From the IMG/VR virus record IMGVR_UViG_3300027807_000001, positions 19,285 to 83,284 of that record: DNA of 64,000 bases. One strand, written 5' to 3'. How positions within the stretch are numbered: position 1 is the first letter of the stretch; each line of letters opens with the position of its first letter. The position numbers and the translations under genes are program-made. A model generated the notes under the pieces. That model was not told where the DNA came from, made no database searches, and worked only from the letters and a program-made list of their open reading frames with translations. This stretch comes from a virus. Lineage: Duplodnaviria; Heunggongvirae; Uroviricota; Caudoviricetes. Shown here piece by piece: positions 9,747 through 51,082 of the stretch.

Positions 9747-9816
9747 GTTAGTCACGGATGAGCTAGGCCCAGGTGAATCGATACCTGCGAAGGCGGGAGC
9801 GATCCGTGCACATTTT
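9747..9816 (+). promoter_or_regulatory. bipartite leader element GTTAGTCACGG-N46-CCGTGCACATTTT (copy a)
   Basis: conserved flanks shared with 6 other loci; CACGG/CCGTG can close a hairpin; 44 nt upstream of ATG 9860. Confidence 0.45.
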
Positions 9817-9859
9817 GTACCGCCGTTGAAGACCAATAACCATACAAGCGAGGTGTCAT

Positions 9860-10162
9860 ATGGCTTCGAAGGTCTATCGTCCCGACTCACTCGGTCAGGT
9901 GATGGAGATGAATCACTCCGCCCTGTGCTTCAAGTCGCATAAGGAATTCCGTCCCGTCAAGGAAGCTTACAACGTGGCCAAGGATCTCTTCGTCAGCGAG
10001 GAGCAGCTGTTCCAGCAGGCCGTCGAACGCTGGCACAAGGCCAAGGAAAATTTTCGGAACGCCCGGCAGCATTTCCGGATCTGCCTGGAGGCGCGGCAGA
10101 CGCTTCAAAAAGATTGCCCGAGGTGCGAGCTGAATCGCTCCCTCACGGAAAAGAAGGACTAG
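9860..10162 (+). CDS. hypothetical protein (100 aa)
   Basis: ATG after leader element; SD-like GAGGTG. Confidence 0.5.
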   Translation: MASKVYRPDSLGQVMEMNHSALCFKSHKEFRPVKEAYNVAKDLFVSEEQLFQQAVERWHKAKENFRNARQHFRICLEARQTLQKDCPRCELNRSLTEKKD

Positions 10163-10179
10163 CCTTCGTAGGAGGTCCA

Positions 10180-10368
10180 ATGGATGAGACAGTCGTAGAC
10201 TGGCTCGGTAGACCGCTGGGCATCGTAAAGAAGGAAGGGGATCGTACAACCGTCACCTCATGGACGGGAGATCCCCTCGGATCGGCAGATAATAAAGGTA
10301 CGCGTACGTGGCTGGGACAACCCGTAAGTCCCAACAACGTGCCAGACCTCTTGCTGCCGAAGAAGTAA
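10180..10368 (+). CDS. hypothetical protein with W-x-G-x-P-L-G repeats
   Basis: SD GTAGGAGGTCCA then ATG; track start 10114 lies inside the previous gene. Confidence 0.45.
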   Translation: MDETVVDWLGRPLGIVKKEGDRTTVTSWTGDPLGSADNKGTRTWLGQPVSPNNVPDLLLPKK

Positions 10369-10424
10369 GTGCCCTACACTAGGTAACTAGGTAGGTTTGT
10401 CCGTATACCGTAAGGAGAAATACC

Positions 10425-10805
10425 ATGGCTACGCATACGCATCCGTCCACCAAGGCCGCGGCCGTCCCCGTTCAGACCGCGATGTCCAACAAAGCCGGGA
10501 AGCTGACCCCGGGCCGCATCGTCCTGCTCCGAGAGCTGCACAAGGCGCCGGGCGGCATCCTGAGCTTCGGTCAGCTCCGGATGGCGTACTTCGGGAAAGA
10601 GAGGGGCGCGGGCAACAAAGCCACGACGGCGTTCTACATGGCTCTGCAGCGCGTGATCGAGTTCCTCTGGATCGACAAGAACCCCGAGGGCGGCTATCGG
10701 CTGTCCGAGGCGGGAAAGGACATCATCGAAGCGGAGCTCAAGAAGGACCCGCGCGCCGTGGACCGCGCTCAGTCGCAGGCGGCGTTGAAGTACCACGTCG
10801 CCTAG
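10425..10805 (+). CDS. winged-helix-like family protein, paralog D (LRMAYFGKERGAGNKATTAFY)
   Basis: family motif; SD AAGGAGAAATACC; very GC-rich. Confidence 0.6.
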   Translation: MATHTHPSTKAAAVPVQTAMSNKAGKLTPGRIVLLRELHKAPGGILSFGQLRMAYFGKERGAGNKATTAFYMALQRVIEFLWIDKNPEGGYRLSEAGKDIIEAELKKDPRAVDRAQSQAALKYHVA

Positions 10806-10910
10806 TAGCGTAAGCCGTACGATCACCTGAGCCCAGCCGGGAGGGCGGCAGCACTATCCCGGCACAATTTTGTTATACGTGGGATGTCGACTTAACTTCG
10901 AGGTATTAAA

Positions 10911-11213
10911 ATGCTCCGAGAAGACATCAGTGCCACCATTCCCACCCTGCCTACCAGCGTCGTCTCTCCTGTCCATACCGAAGGATGCCGGACATCCCAC
11001 CAGACCTTCAAGGAGAGACAGGCGCGGTACGAAGCCGCCAAGCGTCGCAACAAGGCTGCCCATGAGGCCTTCAAGGCCGCCGTCGCTTCTTGGGAAGCCG
11101 AGAAAGAGAAGTTCCGAGAAGATGCCGACATCTTCTTCACGACCTTGGACATCCGCAAGGCCATCCAGAGCAAGTGCGCCGGCTGCTGCGGCGGTCGCAA
11201 GACCAAGAGGTAA
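10911..11213 (+). CDS. hypothetical protein (CAGCCGG C-terminus)
   Basis: SD GAGGT; balanced composition, unlike the P/S/R-rich alternative frame 10870-11262. Confidence 0.45.
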   Translation: MLREDISATIPTLPTSVVSPVHTEGCRTSHQTFKERQARYEAAKRRNKAAHEAFKAAVASWEAEKEKFREDADIFFTTLDIRKAIQSKCAGCCGGRKTKR

Positions 11214-11216
11214 CCC

Positions 11217-11456
11217 ATGGATCTCGAAAATCCTAAGTGCCCTTTCTGGTCTAAGCGCATGACCAATAAAGATCTCAAGGCTCGCCGGTGCGCCTCCCAG
11301 CAGCTTGTGCCTGTGCCAACCCCTAAAGGCAAGACCCTCTTGATCTGCCGGCAGCACAGGGCAGAGTTTCTTCAGACCGGAAAAGTCCGCACCAAGGTCG
11401 AAGCCAACCAACCTTACTCGACCCGCATCTACCGACCCACGGAGTGGCACAAGTGA
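11217..11456 (+). CDS. Cys-containing hypothetical protein (CPFW...CRQH)
   Basis: ATG 4 nt after previous stop. Confidence 0.5.
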   Translation: MDLENPKCPFWSKRMTNKDLKARRCASQQLVPVPTPKGKTLLICRQHRAEFLQTGKVRTKVEANQPYSTRIYRPTEWHK

Positions 11457-11508
11457 GCGACAAAGAAATCGCCAAGCGCTGGATGGATCATCTCTACGGA
11501 GTGACCAA

Positions 11509-11694
11509 GTGAGATTCTGGAATGACTTCCTCAGCCTCTTGATGGGCATCTATCTGTTCACATTCGGATGGATGTTCGTTTGGGGACTGATGTCCCACGT
11601 CGACCCCGTTCTTAACAGGTCGAATCGTTATCGATTCGAATTGATCTGCCCTGGCTATCAGCTCGGCAGATGGCTTACGGAGGCCGTCAAGTGA
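11509..11694 (+). CDS. small membrane protein
   Basis: hydrophobic LMGIYLFTFGWMFVWGLM. Confidence 0.45.
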   Translation: MRFWNDFLSLLMGIYLFTFGWMFVWGLMSHVDPVLNRSNRYRFELICPGYQLGRWLTEAVK

Positions 11695-11927
11695 ACGAAC
11701 CTATCATACTTCCAAGCGGATGGATCATCACCGCGGACCCTAAGGCCGAGGGATGCAAGCGCGCCATCGTCTTCCTTAAGAAGCGAATCATCTTTATGTC
11801 GCCGGCCATGTTCAGTTTGCTGGAAACCGACAGGAAGGCTGTCTTGGCCTCTCTTAAGTTCCTGAATGCCGATGCCCTTCTGGATGCCGAAATGGCCGGG
11901 TCGCGCACAAGCGGAGTGGCCACATGA
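11691..11927 (+). CDS. hypothetical protein (GTG start overlapping previous stop)
   Basis: GTGA overlap; track ATG start 11670 lies inside the previous gene. Confidence 0.35.
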   Translation: MNEPIILPSGWIITADPKAEGCKRAIVFLKKRIIFMSPAMFSLLETDRKAVLASLKFLNADALLDAEMAGSRTSGVAT

Positions 11928-12175
11928 TCTTGCTCCTGATCCTCCTGGCACTGTACGCTGCTCTCTTCCTCGGATGGGATGTATCCCGCTATGACAGGGA
12001 GAGAGGGGTCTGGGCGGCGTCGCTCTGGTTAGTCGGAACCGTTCTCTTAGCCGTCCTGGTCTTCCTCCGGCTCTTCCCCTGGTGGGTCGCTTTGATCTTC
12101 CAGTTCTGGTTGGACCAGGTCGTCAGCAACTTCAAACGGATCGACGGTAAAGAAGAAGTAGATTCTAATTTCTAG
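11924..12175 (+). CDS. membrane protein (two transmembrane segments)
   Basis: ATGA overlap; strongly hydrophobic. Confidence 0.5.
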   Translation: MILLLILLALYAALFLGWDVSRYDRERGVWAASLWLVGTVLLAVLVFLRLFPWWVALIFQFWLDQVVSNFKRIDGKEEVDSNF

Positions 12176-12208
12176 AAGGCAACGTAAAGGAAGGAGATAT
12201 CATCTTCT

Positions 12209-12349
12209 ATGATAGAGATAACCTTTGTGATGCAGCCGCATCCGAAACGGCCCGGCTGGTGGCAGCCTGTCGCCGTGGCGACGGTCTCCGAGATCATGAA
12301 GGACGGGAGCCGCCAGCCTATCAAGGGGACAATCGTCGTCGCACCCTGA
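12209..12349 (+). CDS. hypothetical small protein (46 aa)
   Basis: SD AAGGAAGGAGAT then ATG. Confidence 0.3.
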   Translation: MIEITFVMQPHPKRPGWWQPVAVATVSEIMKDGSRQPIKGTIVVAP

Positions 12350-12407
12350 ACCTAAAATTTGGTTTTAGAATTGCAGCAGGCCGAACCGGGGCCACCGTGA
12401 AAGGATC

Positions 12408-12707
12408 GTGAAAGGATGTAGAAGCGGGGTTAACGACAAATCTATGATCAGAAAAGGTTCTTTTATTGTTCCTCATCCTAATCGTTATCTACCTTTAGTT
12501 TACCATGGCAAGGTAGGTAAGGTTGAATTAGCGGGTAAGAAAGGGGAAACGCTTGTCGCTAACTTACTCTCCGTTAAATTTGAAGGATCAGGGATGACGG
12601 AACCTTATCGGTTATTCCGGAAGGATGAAGTAAGACCAGCGACTAGAGAAGAAGTACGCGCACATAAGTTTGTTATAAATGTCGCGACAATGACAATAAG
12701 GAAGTAG
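12408..12707 (+). CDS. ATEEE-tail family protein (C-terminus ATREEVRAHKFVINV)
   Basis: one of 4 paralogs (12408, 16996, 27648, 27957) sharing C-terminal ATEEE-x-R-x-[FY]-[KL]-[FL]-I motif. Confidence 0.5.
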   Translation: MKGCRSGVNDKSMIRKGSFIVPHPNRYLPLVYHGKVGKVELAGKKGETLVANLLSVKFEGSGMTEPYRLFRKDEVRPATREEVRAHKFVINVATMTIRK

Positions 12708-12708
12708 T

Positions 12709-12912
12709 ATGAAGAGAAAGGCGATCTGGACAGCATACGGCGTAGGTGTTATTACCTTCTATATCGTATGCTCGTGTTGTGTATTAATCAGGATGAAGCA
12801 GGCCCAGTTGCGGATTCGCTTAGAGAAGCAAGCTCTTTGCGTTCAACGGGGAGGAACTGACGCTTACGTTGATAGCGACGGCTACTGCGTAAAGAAGGTC
12901 ATACCTAAATAA
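12709..12912 (+). CDS. small membrane protein
   Basis: hydrophobic core AYGVGVITFYIVCSCCVLI. Confidence 0.45.
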   Translation: MKRKAIWTAYGVGVITFYIVCSCCVLIRMKQAQLRIRLEKQALCVQRGGTDAYVDSDGYCVKKVIPK

Positions 12913-12941
12913 TCGGAGATCCTGTGAAACGAATAGGCGTT

Positions 12942-13055
12942 ATGTTCTTGGATTGTATCCAGTGCGCCTTATGTGTTCATATCGTTTATGACAATGGTAA
13001 GGCGAAGTGTATGCTTTGTTCTACCATTAGGCCTCTCCCAGAGCTTCCTAAATGA
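12942..13055 (+). CDS. small Cys-rich peptide (MFLDCIQCALC...CMLC)
   Basis: 37 aa with two CxxC pairs. Confidence 0.3.
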   Translation: MFLDCIQCALCVHIVYDNGKAKCMLCSTIRPLPELPK

Positions 13056-13225
13056 GATACATACTTCTGTCGCTACTTCTCTGCGGGTGTGGAGAGGTAA
13101 GACCTTTGCCGACATTACATTATACCTGCTATAAGAACGACAAAGAGGTCTTTAGCGGAGATAGAGACGTCCTTACGTTGTCGGCAGAGGATCGATTTGA
13201 TAGGTGCGTCGTGCGAGAAAGATGA
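13052..13225 (+). CDS. putative lipoprotein (MRYILLSLLLCGCGEV...)
   Basis: ATGA overlap; lipobox-like LLLCGC. Confidence 0.4.
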   Translation: MRYILLSLLLCGCGEVRPLPTLHYTCYKNDKEVFSGDRDVLTLSAEDRFDRCVVRER

Positions 13226-13458
13226 AAGTTAGAGCTTCTGGTTGGGTAATCCTTAAAGAGGGTAAGAAAGATCTAGCGTGTCTTATCAATAGGCATGCTC
13301 TGTGTAATGAAGAATGTAACAAGTATAGATCTTGTCGTAGGAGAAAGAGAGCCCATTGTTTGCGGTGTGATACTATTTTCGGATGGGCTAGATTAGATAC
13401 CTTCCGTTCGTCGAAATGGAAGAAAGCTGCCATAGGTAATTCATTAGAGAGTTCATGA
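13222..13458 (+). CDS. Cys-rich subfamily B protein (LACLINRH...CLRC)
   Basis: ATGA overlap; paralog of 13455-13682 (RRKRAHCLRC versus RRDRAHCPRC). Confidence 0.5.
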   Translation: MKVRASGWVILKEGKKDLACLINRHALCNEECNKYRSCRRRKRAHCLRCDTIFGWARLDTFRSSKWKKAAIGNSLESS

Positions 13459-13682
13459 TGCGCCAAGTTTGGTATCTTATCAAACCAGGTAGTACCAATC
13501 TAATTTGTTTAATCAAAGGGCATCTACTCTGTAGAATATATTGTCGCGTAACTAAGGCGTGTGGTAGAAGAGATAGAGCGCATTGCCCACGCTGCGGAGC
13601 TCTTACCGGATATCTAAAACAAGAGCGGGTGACTAATAAATTTCCTGAGGTACTGATAGACGGCGACGGATACGAATCTTAG
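13455..13682 (+). CDS. Cys-rich subfamily B protein (LICLIKGH...CPRC)
   Basis: tandem paralog of the previous gene. Confidence 0.5.
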   Translation: MMRQVWYLIKPGSTNLICLIKGHLLCRIYCRVTKACGRRDRAHCPRCGALTGYLKQERVTNKFPEVLIDGDGYES

Positions 13683-13692
13683 AGGTACCTAA

Positions 13693-13728
13693 CCTCACAA
13701 AAGGTTCTATGGGCGAAAGGTAAAATAT
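13693..13728 (+). promoter_or_regulatory. promoter-like element (copy 10) CCTCACAAAAG-N17-TAAAATAT
   Basis: conserved motif; immediately upstream of ATG 13732. Confidence 0.45.
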
Positions 13729-13731
13729 AAG

Positions 13732-13841
13732 ATGAGGATGACAATGACAACCATCTGCATCGCTTCATTGTTAGGACTCGAGGCAGTGAAGATTTACCTT
13801 TGCGCCAAGGCGTGGCGACTGCTAATGGAGAAAAAGAAATG
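13732..13841 (+). CDS. hypothetical small membrane peptide (36 aa)
   Basis: first ATG after promoter copy 10. Confidence 0.3.
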
Positions 13842-13961
13842 AACCTCTTCAAGGCAGTAGAAACCTGGTTGTCGACATACCTATACACCACCAATGCGAC
13901 CCTTCTTTTGATCATCGTTCTTTCGATGATCGTCGGGGCGTTCATAGGGAGACTATTGTGA
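13839..13961 (+). CDS. small membrane protein (40 aa)
   Basis: ATGA overlap; hydrophobic. Confidence 0.3.
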   Translation: MNLFKAVETWLSTYLYTTNATLLLIIVLSMIVGAFIGRLL

Positions 13962-14125
13962 GCAAGAAGATCAAGATCACGCGCCCTTTGAAGAGGCGGA
14001 AGACGAGGTTTCTCACAGGGAAGATTGTCGTTCGACCGTCTACTTGGCAAAGCTTCGGCATGCGATGGCTTACCAATCAGGCCGCCACTAAGAGCGATTA
14101 TCAGACTGTCGGAGGCACTGAATGA
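13958..14125 (+). CDS. basic hypothetical protein (GTG start)
   Basis: GTGA overlap; K/R-rich. Confidence 0.3.
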   Translation: MSKKIKITRPLKRRKTRFLTGKIVVRPSTWQSFGMRWLTNQAATKSDYQTVGGTE

Positions 14126-14795: not shown

Positions 14796-14814
14796 ATTGT
14801 CGGCGTCAGTCCTT

Positions 14815-14854
14815 CCCCAAGGCCAAGGTGTCAGTCGCCTTGGGGCTTTTTGTT
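14815..14854 (+). terminator. rho-independent terminator CCCCAAGGC...GCCTTGGGG-CTTTTTGTT
   Basis: 9-bp GC stem plus T-tract 20 nt after stop; followed by about 270 nt non-coding. Confidence 0.6.
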
Positions 14855-19245: not shown

Positions 19246-19395
19246 ATGGCCGATCCACAAGGTATGGACACAAAACAGTTGGTCAGCTATCTTTGGACCA
19301 ATCGCAACAACCCGAGGAAGCTGACGGAGGTGGGTTTCGGAGTCGCCGACGCCCAGTCCTACTTCAGGCGCTTCCCGCAGTTCGTTCCGAAGTAG
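19246..19395 (+). CDS. hypothetical protein (49 aa)
   Basis: SD TAAGGAGAAATCAAATG. Confidence 0.4.
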   Translation: MADPQGMDTKQLVSYLWTNRNNPRKLTEVGFGVADAQSYFRRFPQFVPK

Positions 19396-19440
19396 ATTTC
19401 GCGGGGTCGCACCCTGCGGGTAACTTCCGCCTTTGGAAGA

Positions 19441-19471
19441 GTTAGCCACGGCATAGAGCCGTGCATAATTT
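19441..19471 (+). promoter_or_regulatory. bipartite leader element, compact copy (GTTAGCCACGG-cataga-GCCGTGCATAATTT)
   Basis: same conserved flanks closing a 6-bp hairpin. Confidence 0.4.
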
Positions 19472-19736
19472 AGTTCAGCGAAGGCTGACTAGAACTTACG
19501 CGAAGAAGCTCTCTGGGTTGCAATTGGGCTTCTTCGCGTAATTACGAGAGGGAGATGAACAGCCCTTCAGAGATAATTTCCCTCTCGACCAATTTGGGAG
19601 TGATAGCCCAGACAGACACTCGGACAGCTACAAGGGGCTATAGAGTGTCAGATGCGGATCGAATGCCTCATCCATATCGATCCTCTACAGGTGTATGTAA
19701 AGAACGAGATACACTTGAACTAGCCCATAGGCTAGA

Positions 19737-19793
19737 GTAAGTCACTCCTCATGAGAGTTCGTTTAATCAGAGTGAGGGGTGCACAATTCATTT
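19737..19793 (+). promoter_or_regulatory. bipartite leader element variant (AGTCAC-hairpin-GGGTGCACAATTCATTT) just before tRNA
   Basis: 3' flank identical to the copies at 50588 and 51067; CACTCCTCA/TGAGGGGTG stem. Confidence 0.4.
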
Positions 19794-19795
19794 GT

Positions 19796-19869
19796 GGGCT
19801 CTTAGCTTAGTTGGTCAAAGCACCGACCTCATAAGTCGGCAATCATTGGTTCGAGTCCAATAGGGCCCA
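19796..19869 (+). tRNA. tRNA-Met or tRNA-Ile2 (anticodon CAT)
   Basis: cloverleaf: acceptor GGGCTCT/AGGGCCC, anticodon arm CCGAC-CTCATAA-GTCGG, T-arm ATTGG-TTCGAGT-CCAAT; CCA not encoded. Confidence 0.7.
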
Positions 19870-20057
19870 GATTTTGTAAGAGGGATAGTCACACGCAGTA
19901 GACTCAAACCAATAAGATCTACTGTAGATGGATCAAACAGTTGCGAGGAGGAAGAGGCTGCCGCATAAGGGCCCCAACTGAACCTCGGCAAGCCAACTGT
20001 GCTAGGCGTAGCTTGACGCTGAATTTGCCCCTCTTACTTACTTCTTAAGGAGGCTGT

Positions 20058-20294
20058 ATGCCTGAAGCCAAGCAGACTGTTTACACCGTCACCCTCAATG
20101 AAGAGAAACCTCCCCTCATGGTAGGGGAGACAGTTTACCACAACAATCCTATCCTCAATATTGTCTTCACCGGCAAGGGCTACCCCTCCACTCTAAAAGT
20201 GGGAGTAGGGAAGGTTCGCATGATTCTTCATGCTCTCCCGGAGCTCGTCGCCTTCTACGAGAAGTATAAGGGGAACCTTAGCTCAGCCGATTAG
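20058..20294 (+). CDS. hypothetical protein
   Basis: SD TAAGGAGGCTGT then ATG. Confidence 0.5.
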   Translation: MPEAKQTVYTVTLNEEKPPLMVGETVYHNNPILNIVFTGKGYPSTLKVGVGKVRMILHALPELVAFYEKYKGNLSSAD

Positions 20295-20407
20295 ATAAGT
20301 TTTGTCTCGAGAAAGCGCAAGGATTTGCGCGAACAACCCTGCTGGGAAGTCGGGGAGATCCTGCGATTGTAACGGACCTTAATCCACGAATTTGTCGGAG
20401 GAATACT

Positions 20408-20638
20408 ATGTCGCGCAAGAAGAATAACTGCTGTAAGCTATACCGCACATCTAGAGGGGGCTCTCTTAATCTAGAAATACACTCGGATTATTGCGTGACA
20501 CTCCAGCAGTGCGGTTGTGGCACTAAAGGATGTAAGGACATCCCTGAACTAACCCAGAAAGAAATGGAGAATGCTTACCGCTGCTTCTTTACTCCTGAGA
20601 AGAAACAGGAGCGCGAGAAGATCTCCAGGGAACTTTAA
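20408..20638 (+). CDS. Cys-rich hypothetical protein (NNCCKLYRT...CGCGTKGC)
   Basis: SD GGAGG; CC motif distantly resembling the LCC family. Confidence 0.5.
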   Translation: MSRKKNNCCKLYRTSRGGSLNLEIHSDYCVTLQQCGCGTKGCKDIPELTQKEMENAYRCFFTPEKKQEREKISREL

Positions 20639-20651
20639 GATCAATTGTTCT

Positions 20652-20885
20652 ATGAACAAGGGTATCTGTTGTTTAATTAACCCCTGCGTTAAGTGTCGAA
20701 TCTGCAACGAGAGCTGGTGCGAAGAACACTGGTTTGGGGTCGTTGACTCCAACACTGCTACCTCCCATTCATCTTCTTCCAATGAGTATGGTGGATGGGG
20801 AGTTTGCCCAAAGACCAAGCAGCACGTGCGATGGGATTCATCCAACTCTACTCGAGATTCGATATCTTGGATTTGCGCCGCTTAA
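20652..20885 (+). CDS. LCC-family mini-protein (ICCLINP)
   Basis: MNKGICCLINPCVKCRICNESWC; track start 20571 lies inside the previous gene. Confidence 0.55.
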   Translation: MNKGICCLINPCVKCRICNESWCEEHWFGVVDSNTATSHSSSSNEYGGWGVCPKTKQHVRWDSSNSTRDSISWICAA

Positions 20886-21012
20886 GATCTTCCTTCCGCT
20901 AGTTTGGAAGGAATAGACACGTTAGTCTTCAACTGAAGACAGCTGTCGAAAGGTTAACGAGGCTAAACCTTACAAAACCTCGAGTACGATAACGCTCAAC
21001 TCGAGCGTTCAA

Positions 21013-21399
21013 ATGACCGGAACAGGAGCTCCTGAAATCCTAGTTAGTCACGGAGCGCGTCGCGAGGATTGGTGCTATCGAGAGATAGCACTTGGCGGAC
21101 ACCTCCAGGTGTTCGTTCATTTTCAAGTCCACACGAACATCCGTGCTATATTTATGGGCTCACCTCCTCCTGATGGTAGAGAACTTTGTTGCCAAATCAA
21201 CCCTGCTCCTCTTTACATCATTCATAACAAGAAGATGGAGTACAAATTATGCGCGTTCTGCACACAGCCTATCTGTGAGCTGTGCATCGAAACATATAAG
21301 GCCTTAGACTTTTATCACCACAAATCTTGCAGAGATACGTGTCCTCACGATCGAAAGCATCATACCTTCTTCGCTCCCGATTTCGCGGCTTCTCCGTAG
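21013..21399 (+). CDS. LCC-family protein (LCCQINP), possibly starting at an internal ATG near 21157
   Basis: LCCQINPAPLY...CAFCTQPIC. Confidence 0.5.
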   Translation: MTGTGAPEILVSHGARREDWCYREIALGGHLQVFVHFQVHTNIRAIFMGSPPPDGRELCCQINPAPLYIIHNKKMEYKLCAFCTQPICELCIETYKALDFYHHKSCRDTCPHDRKHHTFFAPDFAASP

Positions 21400-21543
21400 A
21401 AAGATGGAACAATATAGATGCCTTGAGTGCAACCATTCGTGGGAAGCCTCCACAGGACCTCAAACGTGTTCCTGTAAATCAATTTGGGTGTTATGGATTA
21501 ACCATCCACTCATTCAGAAGTACTCCTAAGTCTACCCAACAAC

Positions 21544-21615
21544 GCCCTGTTAGTCTTAATGGTAGAGCGCTCCCTTTACACGGGAGAGAAAGAGGTTCGA
21601 TTCCTCTACGGGGCA
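21544..21615 (+). tRNA. tRNA-Val (anticodon TAC)
   Basis: acceptor GCCCTGT/ACGGGGC, anticodon arm CTCCC-TTTACAC-GGGAG, T-arm AGAGG-TTCGATT-CCTCT, CCA encoded to 21618. Confidence 0.7.
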
Positions 21616-21622
21616 CCACTTT

Positions 21623-21817
21623 ATGAAATGGCCAGACGGGAGGGATCTCTGCTGCACTGTCAATAGTTCATGGTTATGCTGCACTTTATGTCGTAATCCG
21701 ATATGCGACACCTGCGGTGAATCTTATAAGGTAGAAGGATATTTCCACCATCGCCGCTGCTGGACTGCATGTCCTCATGGCGCATTTTTTCATAGTCGAT
21801 TCGACGACAGACAATAA
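21623..21817 (+). CDS. LCC-family mini-protein (LCCTVN)
   Basis: motif DLCCTVNSSWLCCTLCRNPICDTC; starts 5 nt after tRNA. Confidence 0.55.
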   Translation: MKWPDGRDLCCTVNSSWLCCTLCRNPICDTCGESYKVEGYFHHRRCWTACPHGAFFHSRFDDRQ

Positions 21818-21832
21818 AGAGAATTCAACCCC

Positions 21833-22216
21833 ATGAAAAGTTCTTGGACCACTCCCGAAATGTCGCTCTCTCAAAGCTGGATGAGAACTGCTCTGGAAGA
21901 AATGTTCGTTGCGCTACGACGTCAAGGACAAGGACTAACTTTGGATCAAGAAGATGTCATCTGGGCTACTATGGGAATGCCTCGATATCCTACTCCTCTT
22001 GTTCGTAAAGGTATCGGAGTGAATGATACTCTCTCGCCCTCTGCGCCAGCTCCCGCTGCTCCCGCTGCTCCCTTACCTGCTAAGGCAGGGGATACGCTAA
22101 GCTTTCCCTCTCCTATCGCGGAAGACACAGAGATGCTAGAGGCGCCGCGGATCGATATCACTCAGACCGATGAATATAAAGCAATGCTAAAGGCACGCCA
22201 GGAGAGAGGATCATGA
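21833..22216 (+). CDS. hypothetical protein with P/A-rich linker
   Basis: ATG ORF of 127 aa. Confidence 0.5.
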   Translation: MKSSWTTPEMSLSQSWMRTALEEMFVALRRQGQGLTLDQEDVIWATMGMPRYPTPLVRKGIGVNDTLSPSAPAPAAPAAPLPAKAGDTLSFPSPIAEDTEMLEAPRIDITQTDEYKAMLKARQERGS

Positions 22217-22350
22217 CGATAGGATCAGGGATCGCTGTCGTAGGGATTTGGCTTGGAGTAGGGATAATCAGCAATAGAGATCCTGCCCGCGGCATGTTTG
22301 CCGCATTCTTCGCAACATTCGCTACAATGATGGTTTGCGCTCCAAAGTAA
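22213..22350 (+). CDS. small membrane protein (45 aa)
   Basis: ATGA overlap; hydrophobic. Confidence 0.3.
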   Translation: MTIGSGIAVVGIWLGVGIISNRDPARGMFAAFFATFATMMVCAPK

Positions 22351-22408
22351 TATAACCTGTAGCCGTAAGGCTATGATAGCTCCGCCCTTCAGCACCGTCA
22401 ATAGGGTA

Positions 22409-22490
22409 GTTAGTCACGATTGTTAACTGGGACAGAGGGAGACGAAAGTCAACATTACCTCATACCGAGTTAATATACCGTGCACATTTA
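22409..22490 (+). promoter_or_regulatory. bipartite leader element (copy d) GTTAGTCACG-N59-CCGTGCACATTTA
   Basis: conserved flanks; inside the 600-nt non-coding region. Confidence 0.4.
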
Positions 22491-22961
22491 AATCTAGGCG
22501 GCAAAGATGGTCCTATATGGAATAGACTTCGTCTTTAATGTCTAGCGAGATATCGGGGCTCCAAGCCCCTTGACCGCTTAACCAATGTGGGAGCGGCGGT
22601 CAGATAAACCCTCGGCAGCGGAGGGCAATACAGCTGAGCAGGAAGATCGCCTATCCCACAGCATCTTACTTGACAATGCAAGTCATGAAGAAGCTGAAGG
22701 CCCTCAGAGACATAGGTAACGTCTACGGTACAGTAGGAGAGAGGTCCATCCACTTTCCGTGCAAGGAAAGTAACGGTGCGCGCCATACACCCTGTACCTC
22801 ATTTTGGTGAACCAGAGCACCTACATAACCTCGAGTGGTCTTATATACGATTCCACGCTTGCAGAGGTTCTCTGGCGGTAGACTAGAAAGGACATCTAGT
22901 CTTCTAAAGTACCTTGCGCAGGGCAAGTAAAAACCTGAAGTCCAAACCAAGGGAGAAGAAC

Positions 22962-24343: not shown

Positions 24344-24348
24344 AATTT

Positions 24349-24465
24349 ATGGTTAAGTTCAAATCAAGATTATGTTGTCTTGTCAACCCATTCGCCGAAT
24401 GCAAATACTGCAGAACAAAAATTTGTTCTGCATGCCAAAGAGCTCTCGGGGCCCTACATACCTAA
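24349..24465 (+). CDS. LCC-family mini-protein (LCCLVNP), 38 aa
   Basis: MVKFKSRLCCLVNPFAECKYCRTKICSAC; starts 6 nt after tRNA-Arg; below track cutoff. Confidence 0.5.
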   Translation: MVKFKSRLCCLVNPFAECKYCRTKICSACQRALGALHT

Positions 24466-32449: not shown

Positions 32450-32480
32450 TTCGCAAGTAATTCGCAAGTAATTCGCAAGG
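32441..32480 (+). repeat. tandem 11-mer repeat (CGCAAGTAATT) x3.6
   Basis: direct repeats that include the stop codon of the SPFH gene. Confidence 0.6.
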
Positions 32481-32527
32481 GCCGGGCCTATCCATTAGGC
32501 AAAGTCAGATCTCTACTTAAGAGGTCA

Positions 32528-32557
32528 GTTAGTCACGGGGCACGTAACCCCGTGCAC
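32528..32557 (+). promoter_or_regulatory. bipartite leader element (copy e) GTTAGTCACGGGG-cacgtaa-CCCCGTGCAC
   Basis: perfect hairpin; 6 nt before ATG 32563. Confidence 0.45.
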
Positions 32558-32562
32558 GATCT

Positions 32563-42166: not shown

Positions 42167-42173
42167 CCAATTT

Positions 42174-42398
42174 ATGTCTAAATTACAATTCTGGATTGTT
42201 AAATACGATCGTGGAGAAAAGTCTCACGCGACCGGATGGAATGCAGGGCAAGCCTTCGGGTGCTCATCTATTTGTAGAATGGGCCCGTATAACTGCCCAG
42301 AAGTAAGTCGTGCACCTTTTGACGGAAAGAACTTCCCCTCTTGTGTCCCCTGTGCGAAGTTAACTCAAAAGATGCTCCCAATGATAGCGATCAAATAA
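42174..42398 (+). CDS. hypothetical Cys-containing protein
   Basis: 74 aa. Confidence 0.45.
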   Translation: MSKLQFWIVKYDRGEKSHATGWNAGQAFGCSSICRMGPYNCPEVSRAPFDGKNFPSCVPCAKLTQKMLPMIAIK

Positions 42399-43739: not shown

Positions 43740-43918
43740 AGAAACTATGCTGTGCTGTTAATCCCTATATAATGTGCGCTACCTGTGGGTGGACATGTTG
43801 TAAAGATTGTGGTAATGAGATTTGGGAGATGCCAGGAGGACTTCTCTATTCTACTCACGCAAAAGACTCTGAGGAGTGTTATTATTGGGATCCAATAACA
43901 GTCGCCTCTGCTGCATAA
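43727..43918 (+). CDS. LCC-family mini-protein (LCCAVNP), GTG or TTG start
   Basis: KKLCCAVNPYIMCATCGWTCCKDC. Confidence 0.5.
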   Translation: MDILKKLCCAVNPYIMCATCGWTCCKDCGNEIWEMPGGLLYSTHAKDSEECYYWDPITVASAA

Positions 43919-46162: not shown

Positions 46163-46209
46163 GTTGTCACCAGCTTACTAAGGGAGATCTGGAGAAGAAG
46201 GCTCTAGAG

Positions 46210-46497: not shown

Positions 46498-46501
46498 CAA
46501 C

Positions 46502-47044
46502 ATGGCTAAGAAAGTGACGTTAAAGAGTCAATCAGCGATCTGGTGGGCAAGAACCAAGAAGTCAGATGCCTTAACCACTCTCTGGCTTCAGAAACAGTTT
46601 ATGGGCGAGGCTCGCGCGGCCGCTCGTCTAAAAGCGTACCTAGACAAGTTTAATCTTAATACTAAGGTTAGAAAGATTGTCCAGGTCATCGCTATGCAGG
46701 AAGGCGCCCACGCTGGATGGATTGCAGATCTTCTCCAGACAAGAAAGGCTTTACCTGATTTAGATCATGAGGATCGTTACTGGAAACATACTCTCAAGAA
46801 CATCAAATCTTTTGACGATATGTGCGGAGTGGCTTGGGCTGCAGAGAACATGCGCTTGGTACGAATACGTACTATCGTTGAAGACACTAAAGCCCCTAAG
46901 GATATTCGCTCTACCTTCCAAAAGATTCTTAAGGATGAGATCTTCCACGAGAAGGCATTCCGTGCTTTATCTTCAACTTCTTCTAAGAAGAAAGCGCTGG
47001 TCAAGCATTCCGAAGGGATGAAAGCAATTGGATTATTCGCCTAA
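46502..47044 (+). CDS. ferritin-like di-iron protein (possible MiaE-like tRNA hydroxylase)
   Basis: two E...ExxH pairs (GEARAA...EGAH and ENMRL...EIFHE) typical of di-iron carboxylate proteins; the tRNA hydroxylase assignment is inference from context. Confidence 0.5.
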   Translation: MAKKVTLKSQSAIWWARTKKSDALTTLWLQKQFMGEARAAARLKAYLDKFNLNTKVRKIVQVIAMQEGAHAGWIADLLQTRKALPDLDHEDRYWKHTLKNIKSFDDMCGVAWAAENMRLVRIRTIVEDTKAPKDIRSTFQKILKDEIFHEKAFRALSSTSSKKKALVKHSEGMKAIGLFA

Positions 47045-47054
47045 AGAGATTCAA

Positions 47055-47276
47055 ATGGAACAGGAATTCCTTAGAACGAAAAAGCAGTCCTTATGCTGCT
47101 TATTGAATCCAATGTGGATTTGTCGCAGGTGTGGTGCAAAGAACTGCGAACTATGCTGGCGCATAGATCATGAGGCAGCTCAACTTCTTGGAATAAGCGT
47201 TAACCAGATGGGGCACTTGCCCGGCTGTACTATACTAAAAACAGAACTGACGACTATATGGGCAAGATATGCCTAA
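47055..47276 (+). CDS. LCC-family mini-protein (LCCLLNP)
   Basis: MEQEFLRTKKQSLCCLLNPMWICRRCGAKNC. Confidence 0.55.
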   Translation: MEQEFLRTKKQSLCCLLNPMWICRRCGAKNCELCWRIDHEAAQLLGISVNQMGHLPGCTILKTELTTIWARYA

Positions 47277-47499
47277 GGAACTATGTCTCGTGTGTCTCAC
47301 CGGCCAAAGAGTATCGGGAGAAGTGTTCTGGTGCGAAGCATGCCATAGACAGGTATGCGTTAACCATGCTAATCCAGAATCCCTAGCAGGATGGGACTAT
47401 ACGAGTTTAAATCTGCTTTGTCCTGACTGTAAGTATAAAAAGTACCCTATCTCACTAGGGGTCTTCAATTCCCTAAAAATCATTGCGGGGATTGTATAG
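47269..47499 (+). CDS. Cys-rich variant (LCLVCLTG...WCEACHRQVC)
   Basis: shifted-Cys variant of the family. Confidence 0.45.
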   Translation: MPKELCLVCLTGQRVSGEVFWCEACHRQVCVNHANPESLAGWDYTSLNLLCPDCKYKKYPISLGVFNSLKIIAGIV

Positions 47500-47508
47500 G
47501 GTGCTACG

Positions 47509-47673
47509 ATGAGCCACAAAGAGAAGATGAAACTTCCCAAGAAAGAGGTTAAGATTAGAAAGACTTGGGGTAATCTTAATCCAATAACTAAGGTTATTGC
47601 GACAGAAAAAAAGTACAATCGAAATAAAGAGAAGAGAAGCTTCCGAAAAGAGACACACGAATGTGATTGGTAG
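47509..47673 (+). CDS. small basic protein (54 aa)
   Basis: K/R-rich ATG ORF. Confidence 0.35.
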   Translation: MSHKEKMKLPKKEVKIRKTWGNLNPITKVIATEKKYNRNKEKRSFRKETHECDW

Positions 47674-47676
47674 CTA

Positions 47677-47877
47677 ATGAAAGATAGCCAGGAAACTAAA
47701 AGGTTTCTTCGTCAGCTTCGTCAACGAAGAGAGAAGGCAGCGGCGCGACAAGAGCGACAAGCTAAAGAGCCACGGAATAGTATATGTAAGATATGGGGAC
47801 ACGAGAATGATGAAGCCATCTATTCCTGCACACTTTGTCGTATGATTCCCATAAAGCGCGCCGCGAATCTGCCCTGA
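47677..47877 (+). CDS. small basic protein (66 aa)
   Basis: R/K/E-rich. Confidence 0.4.
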   Translation: MKDSQETKRFLRQLRQRREKAAARQERQAKEPRNSICKIWGHENDEAIYSCTLCRMIPIKRAANLP

Positions 47878-48020
47878 CGATATTGTATAAGTGCTCGAGA
47901 TGTGATAGCATCATACAGGCAGACAATTAAATAAAGAAGTGCCTGTGCCGTTTTATCCATGCATATATTATTTGTGTGGATTGTAAAGAAGGATCTCACT
48001 CCCTGAGTTAGCGAGAATCT

Positions 48021-48608
48021 ATGAATGACATTATCAAGAAAGCGATTGAGGAAGCGACTATAAAAGCAGGTGGGCTGCCTGAGAATGTCAAGGAAGTTCT
48101 AGCGCCCAAACCTAGGGAGTACTGTGACGGTCGATGCGGGGGAGGTCCTACGTTTGCAACAAGAGAAATTTCTCTCCCCAAGAGCGAACCTACAGAAGGC
48201 CTTCTTTCTAGAAAAGAGGCTGTTTGGCCCGTTGAACCTGGACAGATGTCCTTGTGGAAGTTAGAAACGGAGCAAGCCCATAGGAAGCGAGAACTGTTTC
48301 TCCAATCGCTTGATACCCCGGAACACTTAGATAGTGTACGTGAGGCCGGGGCTGCTTCTGCTCAAAAGAAAATGTCGCTTAAATCCCAAGCCACTCCTCC
48401 AAGAGAAATTGTTGATAAAGAGCCCAAACTTAAGAAAGTACCTCGACAAAATCGTCTAGGACAAACTAAGCTAATCGACGGCCTGTTAAGAGCTGGAAAG
48501 AATGAGAAAGAGATCTTCGCTGCGGTGAGAGAGCAGATTCCTTCCTATCCTGCAGATAAGCTGCCTAAGCTGATTAAGTTGCGACAATACCATGTGACAA
48601 AGAAATAA
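48021..48608 (+). CDS. hypothetical protein (195 aa)
   Basis: ATG ORF after a 140-nt gap. Confidence 0.5.
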   Translation: MNDIIKKAIEEATIKAGGLPENVKEVLAPKPREYCDGRCGGGPTFATREISLPKSEPTEGLLSRKEAVWPVEPGQMSLWKLETEQAHRKRELFLQSLDTPEHLDSVREAGAASAQKKMSLKSQATPPREIVDKEPKLKKVPRQNRLGQTKLIDGLLRAGKNEKEIFAAVREQIPSYPADKLPKLIKLRQYHVTKK

Positions 48609-48609
48609 C

Positions 48610-48795
48610 ATGAGTCAGTGTCTTGTATGTTTAATAAACACGTCTTCAAGGTGTCTTAACTGTGGAAAAAGATGGTGCGTAGACTGTATCCGCCAGCGAG
48701 ATATGGGAACAGATATAACTCGCTGTCCAAATAGGCCTCTCTACGGAGGCGGGGATGGTCATTGCGTTGTGCATAATCCATGGATCCCAAGATAA
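48610..48795 (+). CDS. Cys-rich variant (CLVCLINT...CLNCGKRWC)
   Basis: shifted-Cys variant. Confidence 0.5.
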   Translation: MSQCLVCLINTSSRCLNCGKRWCVDCIRQRDMGTDITRCPNRPLYGGGDGHCVVHNPWIPR

Positions 48796-49025
48796 CTAAT
48801 CTTCAAGATAGCAGGAGTCTTTGCTGCATAGTTAATGGCAGAAAGTTGAAGATTCCCCGGGATTGTACGTGCAATTTTAAATTGTGCGACGAGTGCATTA
48901 ACCGTAACAAGAACTCCAATTCTAAAATCTTCTGCGGCCGACGTAACTTAAACGCAGACGTTCATTACCGTTTCAATCCCTCATGTCCTTCCTTTAAAGG
49001 ATATACTCTTGTCAATAACCCATAA
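48780..49025 (+). CDS. LCC-family mini-protein (LCCIVNG)
   Basis: SRSLCCIVNGRKLKIPRDCTCNFKLCDEC. Confidence 0.55.
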   Translation: MDPKITNLQDSRSLCCIVNGRKLKIPRDCTCNFKLCDECINRNKNSNSKIFCGRRNLNADVHYRFNPSCPSFKGYTLVNNP

Positions 49026-49209
49026 TAGAAAGCTTTGCTGCGTGGTTAATACGGTTTACGTATGCAGAGACTGTGGCGAAAAGTATTGTGGGCCATGCGG
49101 AGATGACCGATGGATCTTAGTGTGGGTACCTTGGCCATCTCCAAGGATTAGATGCCGTATCTGCAATGGAGGCCACATCTATAACAAAGACGAGATTAGG
49201 CTATTATGA
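49009..49209 (+). CDS. LCC-family mini-protein (LCCVVNT), start uncertain
   Basis: RKLCCVVNTVYVCRDCGEKYC. Confidence 0.45.
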   Translation: MSITHNRKLCCVVNTVYVCRDCGEKYCGPCGDDRWILVWVPWPSPRIRCRICNGGHIYNKDEIRLL

Positions 49210-49340
49210 ATAATCTCTGTTGCACGGTAAATCCCGTCCTAAGGTGTGAGGTGTGTAAGTACTCGTACTGTCGGGATCATACATATCTGTGGCGGCGTCA
49301 TCACCTCACAAAAAGATATAGGGCATTAAGTATAATATGA
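49206..49340 (+). CDS. LCC-family mini-protein (LCCTVNP), 44 aa, 3' end runs through promoter copy 8
   Basis: ATGA overlap; MNNLCCTVNPVLRCEVCKYSYC. Confidence 0.45.
   Translation: MNNLCCTVNPVLRCEVCKYSYCRDHTYLWRRHHLTKRYRALSII
49304..49338 (+). promoter_or_regulatory. promoter-like element (copy 8)
   Basis: CCTCACAAAAAG-N15-TATAAT; 77 nt upstream of the MoxR gene. Confidence 0.5.
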
Positions 49341-49414
49341 TACAAGCTTCGCAGTTTGCACAAAGTTTGTATAGAAAGATCTTGTCGTAGCTACAGCAGC
49401 AAAGGAGGAGTAAG

Positions 49415-50467
49415 TTGAGACCACTCGAAGTTGAAGAAGTCCTCAAATCGATTATCAGCAAGGGAGTTAAGTGTCCTGTCGTTGTGAAGGGAGACGCCGG
49501 AATCGGAAAGAGCCAGGTCATCCAGAAGGTTGGTCGGGACTTGGGCATGCACGTGATTGATTTGCGTCTTGCCCAGATGGAGCCGGGAGATTTGATTGGT
49601 CTTCCCCGGACCGACCCGGAATCCCACAAGACGGTGTGGTACGCTCCGGAGTGGTGGCCTTCGAAGAGCGATAAGGGGACTATCGTATTCTTCGACGAGC
49701 TCAATCGCGCGCCTGTCGATGTGCGACAGGCGGTTTTCCAGGTGCTGACGGAGTATAAGATGCACACGCACGTCCTCCCTGAGAACACCTTCCTCGTCGC
49801 GGCTATCAACCCTGATGAGGGCGGCAAGATGAATTACCAGGTCGAGCAGTTCGACCCCGCCATGGTAAATCGCATGTGCTTCATCTCCATGGAACCTGAT
49901 GGGCAGCAGTGGATCAACTGGGCCACCGCTGCGGGCGTGCATGAGATGGTGATTAAGTTTATCGCCGTCAATACCGCGATGTTGTACGCCGGCAGCGAGA
50001 CGGGCCCTTTCCCGTCGCCTCGCTCGTGGGTCCGCTTGTCGGATCTGATGAATGCGAATGCGATTCCGGCGTCAGCCCAATCGGAGGTTATCTCCGGCCT
50101 GATCGGTGAGAAGCCGGCGATCTCGTTCATTCGCTTCTTGGATAAGTCTTACAAGAAGCCGGTGAGCGGCAAGGAAGTCCTGGAATCGTTCGCGAAGTTC
50201 AAGGACAAGATCAAGGCGCAGAAGAACGACGAGAACTTCGTTACGATCTCGGAGCTCGTCGGTCTCCTGGGCGACGGAGCGAAGCTGAAGAAGGATCAGC
50301 TGACCAACGTCACCGACTTCGCCTTGGCGTTGAAGCAAGAGGAGAAGATGGCCTTGCTGAAGAAGCTGCCGAATTCTCTTCTGTCGAAGCTCGGTCAGAC
50401 CTCGCAGGACCTGTGCAATACGATCGCCTCTATCGCGGCTGAAATGGACAAGGAAAGAGGGCGGTAA
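49415..50467 (+). CDS. MoxR-type AAA+ ATPase
   Basis: TTG start with strong SD AAAGGAGGAG; Walker A GDAGIGKSQ, Walker B IVFFDELNRAP, MoxR-type sensor region. Confidence 0.85.
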   Translation: MRPLEVEEVLKSIISKGVKCPVVVKGDAGIGKSQVIQKVGRDLGMHVIDLRLAQMEPGDLIGLPRTDPESHKTVWYAPEWWPSKSDKGTIVFFDELNRAPVDVRQAVFQVLTEYKMHTHVLPENTFLVAAINPDEGGKMNYQVEQFDPAMVNRMCFISMEPDGQQWINWATAAGVHEMVIKFIAVNTAMLYAGSETGPFPSPRSWVRLSDLMNANAIPASAQSEVISGLIGEKPAISFIRFLDKSYKKPVSGKEVLESFAKFKDKIKAQKNDENFVTISELVGLLGDGAKLKKDQLTNVTDFALALKQEEKMALLKKLPNSLLSKLGQTSQDLCNTIASIAAEMDKERGR

Positions 50468-50534
50468 GGTCTAAGTGATTCTGCGCCCGTACGGGGCCCT
50501 TTATTCGATTCGGGGGACAAGGTTAAAATCGAAA

Positions 50535-50600
50535 GTTAGTCACGGTAATTATCATCTGCGAGCGTAGGAAGGGTATCGATGATAAATCCGTGCACAATTT
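50535..50600 (+). promoter_or_regulatory. bipartite leader element (copy f) GTTAGTCACGG-N42-CCGTGCACAATTT, directly before ATG 50601
   Basis: conserved flanks with nested stem TATCATC/GATGATA. Confidence 0.45.
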
Positions 50601-50908
50601 ATGATTGAACTCCAAGATAGTAATTCTTTTGATCAAGAGGTAGCACAGGGATTAACACTAGTCGACGTGGGGGCCCCCGGTGCGCTCCGTGTAGAGCTTT
50701 AGCTCCAACTATAGAAGCAGTAAGTACCATCCTAGTGGGCAAACTTAAGGTAGTAAAGATAAACGCGGACGAACATACGGAGCTAGTAAATAAGTTAGGT
50801 GTCCATAGTATTCCGACTATTTTATACTACAAAGATGGCGCTCTAGTTAGACGCAGCGTCGGAGTAACAGACCAAGCCACTATTACTGCGGTTGTTGCAT
50901 CACTCTAA
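50601..50908 (+). pseudogene. thioredoxin-like gene interrupted by a -1 frame change in a G5C5 run (50669-50678)
   Basis: frame 0 gives MIELQDSNSFDQEVAQGLTLVDV then stops at 50700; a shifted frame continues GGPRCAPCRALAPTIEAV...IPTILYYKDGALVRRSVGV (CxxC active site and thioredoxin C-terminus). May be a sequencing error or a real frameshift. Confidence 0.6.
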
Positions 50909-51040
50909 AGACACGAACCAGCTTTGCTGTTAAATCCCTCTAAGGAACAAGGACGGTAATTGTGTTGCATTGAAATATAGGAGTCTACCCGTTAGGTAAA
51001 CTCCTCCCTGGACGGTAAACTTCCAACCGTATAAATGGAA

Positions 51041-51082
51041 GAGTTAGCCACTCGCACGCCAGGTGCGGGTGCACAATTCATG
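51041..51082 (+). promoter_or_regulatory. bipartite leader element variant (GTTAGCCACTCGCACG-N-GGGTGCACAATTCATG)
   Basis: 3' flank identical to copies at 19778 and 50588; abuts ATG 51080. Confidence 0.4.

Follow-up and report, generated by a model that had tools for sequence, protein, structure and literature searches.

The closest described analogues of the element reported here are the PeSL (promoter-early stem-loop) and PmSL cassettes of T4-like phages (PMC2839356, PMC4122927). These composite intergenic motifs recur in accessory regions of large phage genomes that are rich in ORFans, and they run in the same direction as the genes. Each has a variable stem-loop, placed between two conserved boxes or beside them, and extends up to the start codon that follows, and the cassettes are located at breakpoints of insertion or replacement. 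All of these traits are shared by an element that occurs nine times in a 64,000-nucleotide (nt) stretch of a tailed-phage genome (hereafter, the window; positions 19,285 to 83,284 of IMG/VR record IMGVR_UViG_3300027807_000001). PeSL cassettes, however, have sigma-70 hexamers that are close to consensus and always spaced by N17, together with a Shine-Dalgarno (SD) sequence, and both promoter and terminator activity have been demonstrated for them, whereas the boxes of the new element, GTTAGY and CACAAT, stand 17-97 nt apart, are often followed by an ATG without an SD sequence, and occur also in unrelated phages that are not T4-like.

A second point of comparison is offered by RNase E cleavage sites, such as those in transfer RNA (tRNA) trailers and at 3' stabiliser hairpins, in which a single-stranded, AU-rich RN↓WUU likewise lies immediately 3' of a stable helix and another unpaired segment lies on the far side of that helix, and which are likewise intergenic in polycistronic RNA; the trailers of the window's own tRNAs look alike. 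Known RNase E sites are degenerate, whereas the element consists of conserved 7- and 8-mers common to several phages and its cleavage is predicted only, and we know of no RNase E site described with a fixed distance of 8 nt between helix and AUG. The evidence set out below strongly supports a real, RNA-structured intergenic element with conserved flanks, which we read, with a probability of roughly 0.4, as an RNA-level mark of intercistronic punctuation and processing, its hairpin shielding the upstream 3' end and an RNase E-type cut freeing the downstream RNA. The element is apparently undescribed, and a full-text literature search with the box sequences returned unrelated primers only; its kind (an intercistronic processing or regulatory cassette) is known, its form and distribution appear to be new, and it is a candidate new RNA family with clear covariation.

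Each complete copy consists of A-GTTAG-Y, a 17-97-nt hairpin closed by CAC..GTG, and an 8-nt 3' box, CACAATTT or a near variant. The A directly 5' of GTTAG is invariant, as is T at position 6 of the 3' box, with A at position 5 and T at positions 7-8 each at least 90% conserved, and a small variable hairpin often precedes A-GTTAG-Y. The base of the stem, mostly CACGG/CCGTG and at times CACTC/GGGTG with a G·U pair, can be written as a semi-conserved C-A-Y-K-S / S-S-R-U-G between two unpaired flanks, which read (W)WAGY 5' of the stem and CACAAUUU 3' of it. An initial annotation made from the letters of the window had proposed that CACGG and CCGTG close the hairpin; the closing helix is indeed present and covaries, but its conserved core is CAC..GTG, and the extension varies, being GG/CC in six of the eight full copies (one of them GA/CC) and TC/GG in two.

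Within the window, GTTAGYCACGG at no more than one mismatch was matched seven times against 1.15 expected, a number that none of 100 shuffles reached, and CCGTGCACAWTT was matched five times against 0.38 expected. A variable-gap search with both boxes (no more than 130 nt apart, no more than two mismatches per box) yielded 12 pairs on the + strand and none on the − strand. At E<0.1, a covariance model of boxes and closing helix likewise recovered + strand copies only, those with short hairpins at E 2e-5 to 0.03; long-insert copies were not recovered because of the insertion penalty. In total, the window holds eight full copies and one without a 5' box, every one on the + strand and every one intergenic: all nine fall in the gaps between + strand open reading frames (ORFs), which make up ~13% of the window.

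The seven loci of the initial annotation carry both boxes as described, but its list was short by a full copy at 21042 and a partial copy at 10837-10870, and its figure of 6-59 nt for the insert becomes a hairpin of 17-97 nt. Copy 1 (9746..9816) comprises AGTTAGT, a 56-nt hairpin at 9753-9808 and the 3' box CACATTTT at 9809-9816, and the next start codon (9860, SD sequence GAGGTG) lies 43 nt downstream. The partial copy (10837..10870; 18.3 bits, E 0.03), a 26-nt hairpin CCGGGA..TCCCGG followed by CACAATTT, has a form identical to that found in a group of ~58-kb phages described below. Copy 2 (19440..19471; 29.5 bits, E 2e-5) joins AGTTAGC to a 17-nt hairpin (6 bp, loop ATAGA) and CATAATTT, with a structured 83-nt leader between the 3' box and ORF 19555, and copy 3 (19736..19789) joins AGTAAGT to a 39-nt hairpin, CACTCCTCA..TGAGGGGTG, with a G·U pair, and the 3' box CACAATTC; tRNA-Met starts 5-6 nt downstream, the one tRNA previously reported behind an element. 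Copy 4 (21042..21153), the full copy added here, has AGTTAGT, a 97-nt branched hairpin and the variant 3' box CTATATTT at 21146-21153. Copy 5 (22408..22490) has AGTTAGT, a 68-nt hairpin and CACATTTA; the 423 nt right after it (22491-22913) hold no convincing + strand ORF and fold strongly, with a minimum free energy of -135 kcal/mol, a value without a shuffle control. Copy 6 (32527..32562; 28.7 bits), with AGTTAGT, a 21-nt hairpin and CACGATCT, lies directly behind a Band_7 gene, and copy 7 (50534..50600), with AGTTAGT, a 52-nt hairpin and CACAATTT, directly behind a MoxR-like AAA gene. Between the Band_7 stop codon and copy 6, at 32450-32480, there is a short tandem repeat of ~2.5 units of TTCGCAAGTAA. 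Copy 8 (51042..51079; 27.2 bits) has AGTTAGC, a 23-nt hairpin CACTCGCAC..GTGCGGGTG and the 3' box CACAATTC. In four copies an ATG comes immediately after the 3' box (at 21154, 32563, 50601 and 51080); the ATGs after copies 4 and 8 belong to ORFs of a small Cys-rich family that we call the LCC family.

The structure of the element was assessed in an alignment, across 44 distinct copies, of the seven pairs that close the hairpin, after removal of the interiors. In this alignment, 91.9% of closing-helix cells were paired, compared to 64.3% in shuffles and 20-39% with a slid partner; all seven pairs showed double-sided changes (74 cells), and the covariation score of 0.671, against 0.164, was reached in none of 500 shuffles. 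The closing helix hence covaries strongly, and the pairing potential on which the initial annotation had staked its proposal is conserved. The hairpins each fold better than their shuffles (mean z -3.4), in 23 of 34 the sense strand folds more stably than the antisense strand, and 30 G·U pairs, which would be A·C mismatches on the other strand, are present in the sense folds; the structure is therefore selected on the transcribed sense strand. Hairpin interiors are replaced freely: where sites are orthologous, as they are behind the Band_7 and AAA genes of the relatives L147 and L170-L172 and behind the major capsid gene of L129-L146, the flanks are kept and the interiors are unrelated, and in the distant relatives L149 and L151 the boxes are lost and a strong hairpin persists at the orthologous site. 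Box spacing varies continuously over 17-97 nt, without a preference for 17 nt, and loops are of 3-8 nt or more, or the hairpins are branched.

On these grounds (spacing, covariation, interior replacement, sense-strand bias, and hairpins without boxes in relatives), the preference of the initial annotation for an RNA-level element over a -35/-10 promoter is borne out. A sigma-70 promoter was rejected outright, given the spacing of 17-97 nt, hexamers that would read GTTAGY and CACAAT, and a consensus scan that was blank at all copies. No Rfam family matches the element: the whole window at gathering threshold gave one transfer-messenger RNA (tmRNA) and four tRNAs only, and E-value searches of 19380-22600 and of positions 6500-8100 in L130 gave nothing at the element. 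A self-cleaving ribozyme was likewise rejected, as conservation is limited to the flanks and stem base and no Rfam ribozyme matched.

The window lies in a 210,340-bp metagenomic contig (Ga0116230_10000007, JGI 3300009510) and has the look of an accessory region from a novel jumbo phage. Its genes are nearly all on the + strand, its protein-level relatives are jumbo phages at ~30% identity, and it had no near match among 50,697 phage records and no close cultured relative in that collection. The next 7.7 kb of the contig beyond the window contained no further copies. Pattern scans and protein-anchored fetches assembled 45 distinct copies, distributed over the window, jumbo-phage relatives, the group of ~58-kb phages and one other phage. 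In the jumbo relatives L147, L170, L171 and L172, whose AAA protein is 79-88% identical, copies lie just after the Band_7 and AAA genes, at places matching those of copies 6 and 7; the metagenome contigs L177, L179, L183, L185, L186 and L187 were also grouped with the jumbo-phage relatives carrying copies. The unrelated phages of ~55-59 kb (L129-L146) have one copy after the major capsid gene and a second, mostly without the GTTAG box, after a scaffold-like gene; the capsid gene, part of the late structural operon, has one of these regular copies on either side. L146 carries a third copy, upstream of the terminase gene, and ~40 kb of the 58.8-kb contig of L132 (L189, L194) held the element nowhere beyond the capsid-bracketing copies. 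A third phage type (L005/L153) has one copy, upstream of a Sak4-like gene. The unrelated smaller phages come from soil, peat and freshwater metagenomes.

Because nearly all of the 15 loci returned by the metagenome pattern scan were hairpin-forming copies, the pattern is highly specific. A longer-gap scan of viral contigs produced chance hits only, and the viral-contig relatives of the Band_7 and Sak4-like genes were too distant and had no copies except on the original L005/L153 contig. When the phage groups were compared for a common factor gene, only an HNH-like homing endonuclease family emerged, which has several copies interspersed among the structural genes of the ~58-kb phages and occurs also in a jumbo relative, implying that these phages exchange DNA. 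Small HNH-like ORFs are found at 7616-7999 (− strand) in L171, at 668-1036, 2388-2726, 9451-9789 and 14753-15214 in L130, and at 4068-4454, 6570-6959, 7296-7703 and 9456-9806 in L140. In L173, L174, L181 and L182, a direct repeat of the element's 5' part, AGTCACGAT[T/C]T[A/G]AACTGTATAT, comes after the element (L174 4785-4880), as if it had been partly duplicated.

Homology between relatives breaks close to the element. At two loci in four relatives, nucleotide identity of 68-80% extends through the upstream gene and ends within ~65-140 nt of the element, and downstream no nucleotide homology is detectable over 1.5 kb at either locus in any relative with detectable upstream homology. Owing to the conservation of its flanks, the element falls at the points where recombination has joined different gene cassettes. 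Bacterial and archaeal genomes (one each from 185,579 species, GTDB representatives) contained 31 single-match loci, mostly non-hairpin, none convincing and none in an array; two or three have a short closing stem, possibly by chance. For the genomes scanned at least, the element is therefore neither a host repeat nor a CRISPR repeat, and a repetitive extragenic palindrome (REP/BIME-type) or miniature inverted-repeat transposable element was rejected for want of a convincing bacterial copy and of a conserved hairpin interior. A phage mimic of host CRISPR repeats, serving as an RNA anti-CRISPR or hijacking Cas6 processing, is suggested by architecture only: a short GUU.. segment at the 5' end, then a hairpin and a 3' handle of exactly 8 nt, as in type I-E/I-F repeats, in a motif common to unrelated phages. 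Given the outcome of the genome scan, an upper hairpin that ranges from 17 to 97 nt, and nine copies that all sit at gene boundaries, we regard such mimicry as highly improbable.

Among the 35 copies that have a 5' box, 14 are followed by an ATG directly after the 8-nt 3' box, with no spacer and no SD sequence, and many of the genes so placed belong to the LCCx[IV]N family, whose conserved N-terminus requires that ATG. In other phages, the 3' box adjoins structured RNA: it lies 0-1 nt from tRNA-fMet in L139, L140 and L143, and abuts a YrlA-like, circularly permuted tRNA mimic in L129-L135 and L142. This module, located between the element and tRNA-fMet (L130 6609-6685; also L129, L132-L135 and L142), is composed of a T arm, an acceptor stem with a 3-nt closing loop, and a D arm; its acceptor and anticodon-like stems covary, and its match to Rfam YrlA (Y RNA-like) is sub-threshold (37.7 bits, E 2.7e-6). 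From tRNA-fMet to the major capsid start there is a conserved, untranslated stretch of ~230 nt (L130 6761-6990, same place in L132-L143; GTTACCAA..GGACAA..TAACGGACAAG..TGTACAATTGTGCA), which may be a structured leader or a noncoding RNA.

Analogous junctions occur at the window's own RNA genes, where four of the five tRNA and tmRNA genes are followed 4-6 nt later, via (A/C)TTT, by an ATG ORF, a pattern that suggests tRNA-punctuated expression. On the + strand, the tmRNA ends ..CCACCA and is followed by CTTTAA and the ATG of ORF 999-1337 (993..1001); tRNA-Val ends ..GCACCA, followed by CTTT and the ATG of an LCC-family ORF at 21623 (21619..21625); tRNA-Arg ends ..GGCCA, followed by AATTT and the ATG of a 38-residue LCC-family ORF at 24349 (24344..24351); and tRNA-Leu ends ..ACCA, followed by ATTT and the ATG of ORF 42174-42398 (42170..42176). 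The tRNA-Leu and tRNA-Val junctions match the layout of the element (a helix, ~8 nt ending in UUU, then AUG), with NCCA where the element has CACA.

A helix-AUG distance of 8 nt in 14 copies, equal after tRNA-Leu and tRNA-Val, and an interval from hairpin to ATG that lacks an SD sequence could point to a translation-initiation module or operator, in which RNA structure helps or gates ribosome loading, either by docking in place of the SD-antiSD helix or through a phage or host protein bound at the stem base and flanks. Hairpins of T4 genes 38 and 25 bring the SD sequence and AUG together, and an SD-like purine run (GAGGA, GGGGA, AGGAGA) does lie just 5' of GTTAG in ~11 of 14 ATG-adjacent copies, versus ~6 of 13 others. 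However, with the hairpin looped out this run is still ~14 nt from the AUG, and about half of the copies are followed not by an ATG but by a tRNA, a tRNA-like RNA, an ORF-poor region or an SD-led gene; the post-capsid copy of the ~58-kb phages precedes an ordinary AAGGAG SD sequence, and many LCC-family genes have neither SD sequence nor element. We consider a role in translation initiation quite unlikely.

In mitochondrial transcripts, tRNAs or stem-loops abut coding sequences, and their excision by RNase P and RNase Z leaves nearly leaderless messenger RNAs (mRNAs). The element also abuts the next coding sequence, but its hairpins are tRNA-like only in the correspondence of CACA to NCCA. Were this kind of punctuation to operate in a bacterial virus, tRNAs, tmRNA and hairpins that mimic acceptor ends would all be excised by the host's tRNA-maturation machinery, with an RNase P-like cut at AGY↓C and an RNase E or RNase Z-like cut after CACA, to give leaderless or near-leaderless mRNAs with the AUG at their start. 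Such a system is doubtful; if it existed, dozens of small genes could be expressed without an SD sequence, and the surrogate hairpin would spread among unrelated phages as a portable cassette boundary.

We favour processing by an RNase E-type enzyme. From the observed sequence conservation, covariation, strand bias, intergenic position, adjacency to ATG or tRNA, and location at breakpoints, we infer a cleavage, its position and the enzyme. A host RNase E-type endonuclease would engage the two unpaired segments on either side of the hairpin, in the manner known from tRNA precursors, and cut within the 3' box at A↓UUU. The upstream RNA (e.g., the major capsid, scaffold, Band_7 and AAA messages) would be left with a protective 3' hairpin, and the downstream RNA would be freed with a leader of ~3 nt, either as an mRNA beginning ..UUU-AUG or as a tRNA or tRNA-like RNA; the tRNA and tmRNA genes of the window phage, with their (A/C)UUU and ATG, would serve in the same role. 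Because the layout at tRNA ends is the same, hairpin plus CACA-AUUU looks like a surrogate for a tRNA end plus NCCA-AUUU. Of the 45 3' boxes, 36 contain RN↓WUU, the RNase E motif established in vivo (PMC5222698), with its U at +2, and direct entry of RNase E on tRNA precursors requires unpaired regions that adjoin the structure on either side (PMC3985628), a need that offers a possible role for both conserved boxes. The window has canonical terminators with hairpin and U-tract (e.g., at 14823) as well as a promoter-like motif of its own, so that the element is redundant with neither.

Several points weigh against this sequence-based reading. Near-identical 7- and 8-nt flanks and stem base in three unrelated phage groups exceed the loose specificity of RNase E, five copies carry CACTATTT and thus have no R at -2, and the match of the 5' box to RN↓WU is partial (31 of 45); the function given to this box is where the model is weakest. 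The presence of RNase E in the host is assumed, as is the translation of RNAs whose 3-nt leader makes them not strictly leaderless. Finally, a purine at +1 in 30 of 35 copies and exact adjacency to ATG are what would be expected of a transcription start site.

If transcription did start at +1, then the conservation of the flanks, the +1 purine and the exact ATG adjacency would be its natural outcome, and the main rival to processing is accordingly a promoter for a phage-encoded or phage-modified RNA polymerase that initiates right after the 3' box, the hairpin being either part of the recognition site, as in phage N4, or a terminator of upstream transcription that is fused with the promoter into one compact cassette. 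The contiguous conserved block CCGTGCAC(A/T)ATTT ends at +1, a position taken in 14 of 35 copies by the A of an ATG, and leaderless mRNAs, together with tRNAs with a ready-made 5' end, would result. As a lead only, CAC(T/A)AT resembles CACTATA at -7..-1 of the T7, SP6 and K11 promoters, and AGTTAG resembles ATTTAG/AATTAG at -17..-12. In T4-like phages, moreover, the PeSL stem-loop lies most often between -35 and -10 (PMC2839356). This promoter remains unlikely in light of boxes that are 17-97 nt apart, a hairpin that is selected on the sense strand with its G·U pairs and persists in relatives after the boxes are lost (L149, L151), and a site in the ~58-kb phages at which hairpin and 3' box are kept and the 5' box is dropped. 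It would require three unrelated phage groups to share an identical polymerase specificity, would start at C in the tRNA-fMet copies, and does not account for the tRNA-AUUU-ATG junctions, which show equal start geometry without a box. No RNA polymerase Pfam domain was detected in 17 larger-ORF proteins from ~40 of the 58.8 kb of the small phage, nor among the window's ten largest ORFs, the only ones scanned there.

The promoters of the N4 virion RNA polymerase are three early promoters with stems of 5-7 bp and loops of 3 nt on the template strand. Like the element, they have a hairpin set in conserved sequence a short way upstream of a potential start point, but the element differs in its 17-97-nt hairpins, its sense-strand bias and its occurrence also in a late structural operon, and with loops of 3-8 nt or more, or branched hairpins, an N4-type hairpin promoter was rejected.

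The 3' side of the element also bears on termination. A canonical Rho-independent terminator was rejected because the tail, CACAAUUU, has no proximal U-tract and because a terminator scan called 14823 and 18922 and none of the nine copies. The usual distance from terminator stem to release is 7-9 nt, and UUU stands at positions 6-8 after the stem of the element, so that a weak or factor-dependent attenuator might release RNA at UUU, 8 nt past the stem, lowering downstream expression and ending the capsid message; its place behind the capsid and scaffold genes would fit, as would the orthologous site of L151, a long hairpin then ATTTTT. The proximal tail, however, is CACAA rather than U, canonical terminators with full U-tracts occur in the same window, tRNAs and start codons that abut the element still need to be transcribed and leave no room for a promoter, and the conserved 5' box is left without explanation. 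Attenuation therefore strikes us as decidedly unlikely.

Should processing be the correct interpretation, a compact, portable RNA signal would set the ends of phage messages, protect abundant ones such as that of the capsid, and free near-leaderless downstream genes, and it would be common to a jumbo-phage lineage and to unrelated smaller phages. Such a signal would help to explain how the long same-strand gene arrays of jumbo phages are split into units, how many small genes without SD sequences are translated, and how accessory cassettes are exchanged between phages.

The LCC family comprises ~40 paralogous small, Cys-rich ORFs with an N-terminal LCCx(I/V)N(P) (e.g., 21154, 21623, 24349, 30955, 34771, 43340, 51080, 52930 and 60126); many of these genes have no SD sequence, and several begin directly after an element or a tRNA. 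At ~43745-43770 and 50925-50945, LCC-like sequences have an in-frame TAA at a sense codon of their paralogues (e.g., CTT TGC TGT TAA ATC CCT), which could reflect pseudogenes or recoding; no suppressor tRNA was seen. A second recurrent intergenic motif, (C)CTCACAAAAAG, N16/17, (A)GTA(A/T)AATAT, pairs a TATAAT-like -10 with a non-standard upstream box and looks like the phage's own promoter class. Its eight copies in the window, on the + strand, are at 8216, 13694, 17916, 28332, 34317, 43228, 49305 and 57704, and in relatives it is found at 8659 in L147, 1811, 9275 and 17984 in L170, 516, 8676 and 17367 in L171, 6222 in L172, and 17253 in L188. An inverted repeat around the class-1 promoter-like motif was dropped, as its folding was inconsistent.

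The tmRNA of the window (560-992; 84.6 bits) is a one-piece phage tmRNA with a long, unusual predicted tag, ..ANEIVNNAFARELAVA, and is preceded by TGTGTATAAT, an extended -10-like sequence. In addition to this tmRNA and the four tRNAs, the window encodes an RNA ligase, a polynucleotide kinase, a CCA-adding enzyme, BCS1-like and MoxR-like AAA ATPases, and two DUF2201 proteins. The gene for the MoxR-like AAA ATPase (49415-50467) is followed by two paralogous DUF2201 (metallopeptidase and VWA-like) genes at 53517-54785 and 57805-59016, and this MoxR-DUF2201-DUF2201 arrangement is kept in all checkable relatives of the jumbo lineage.

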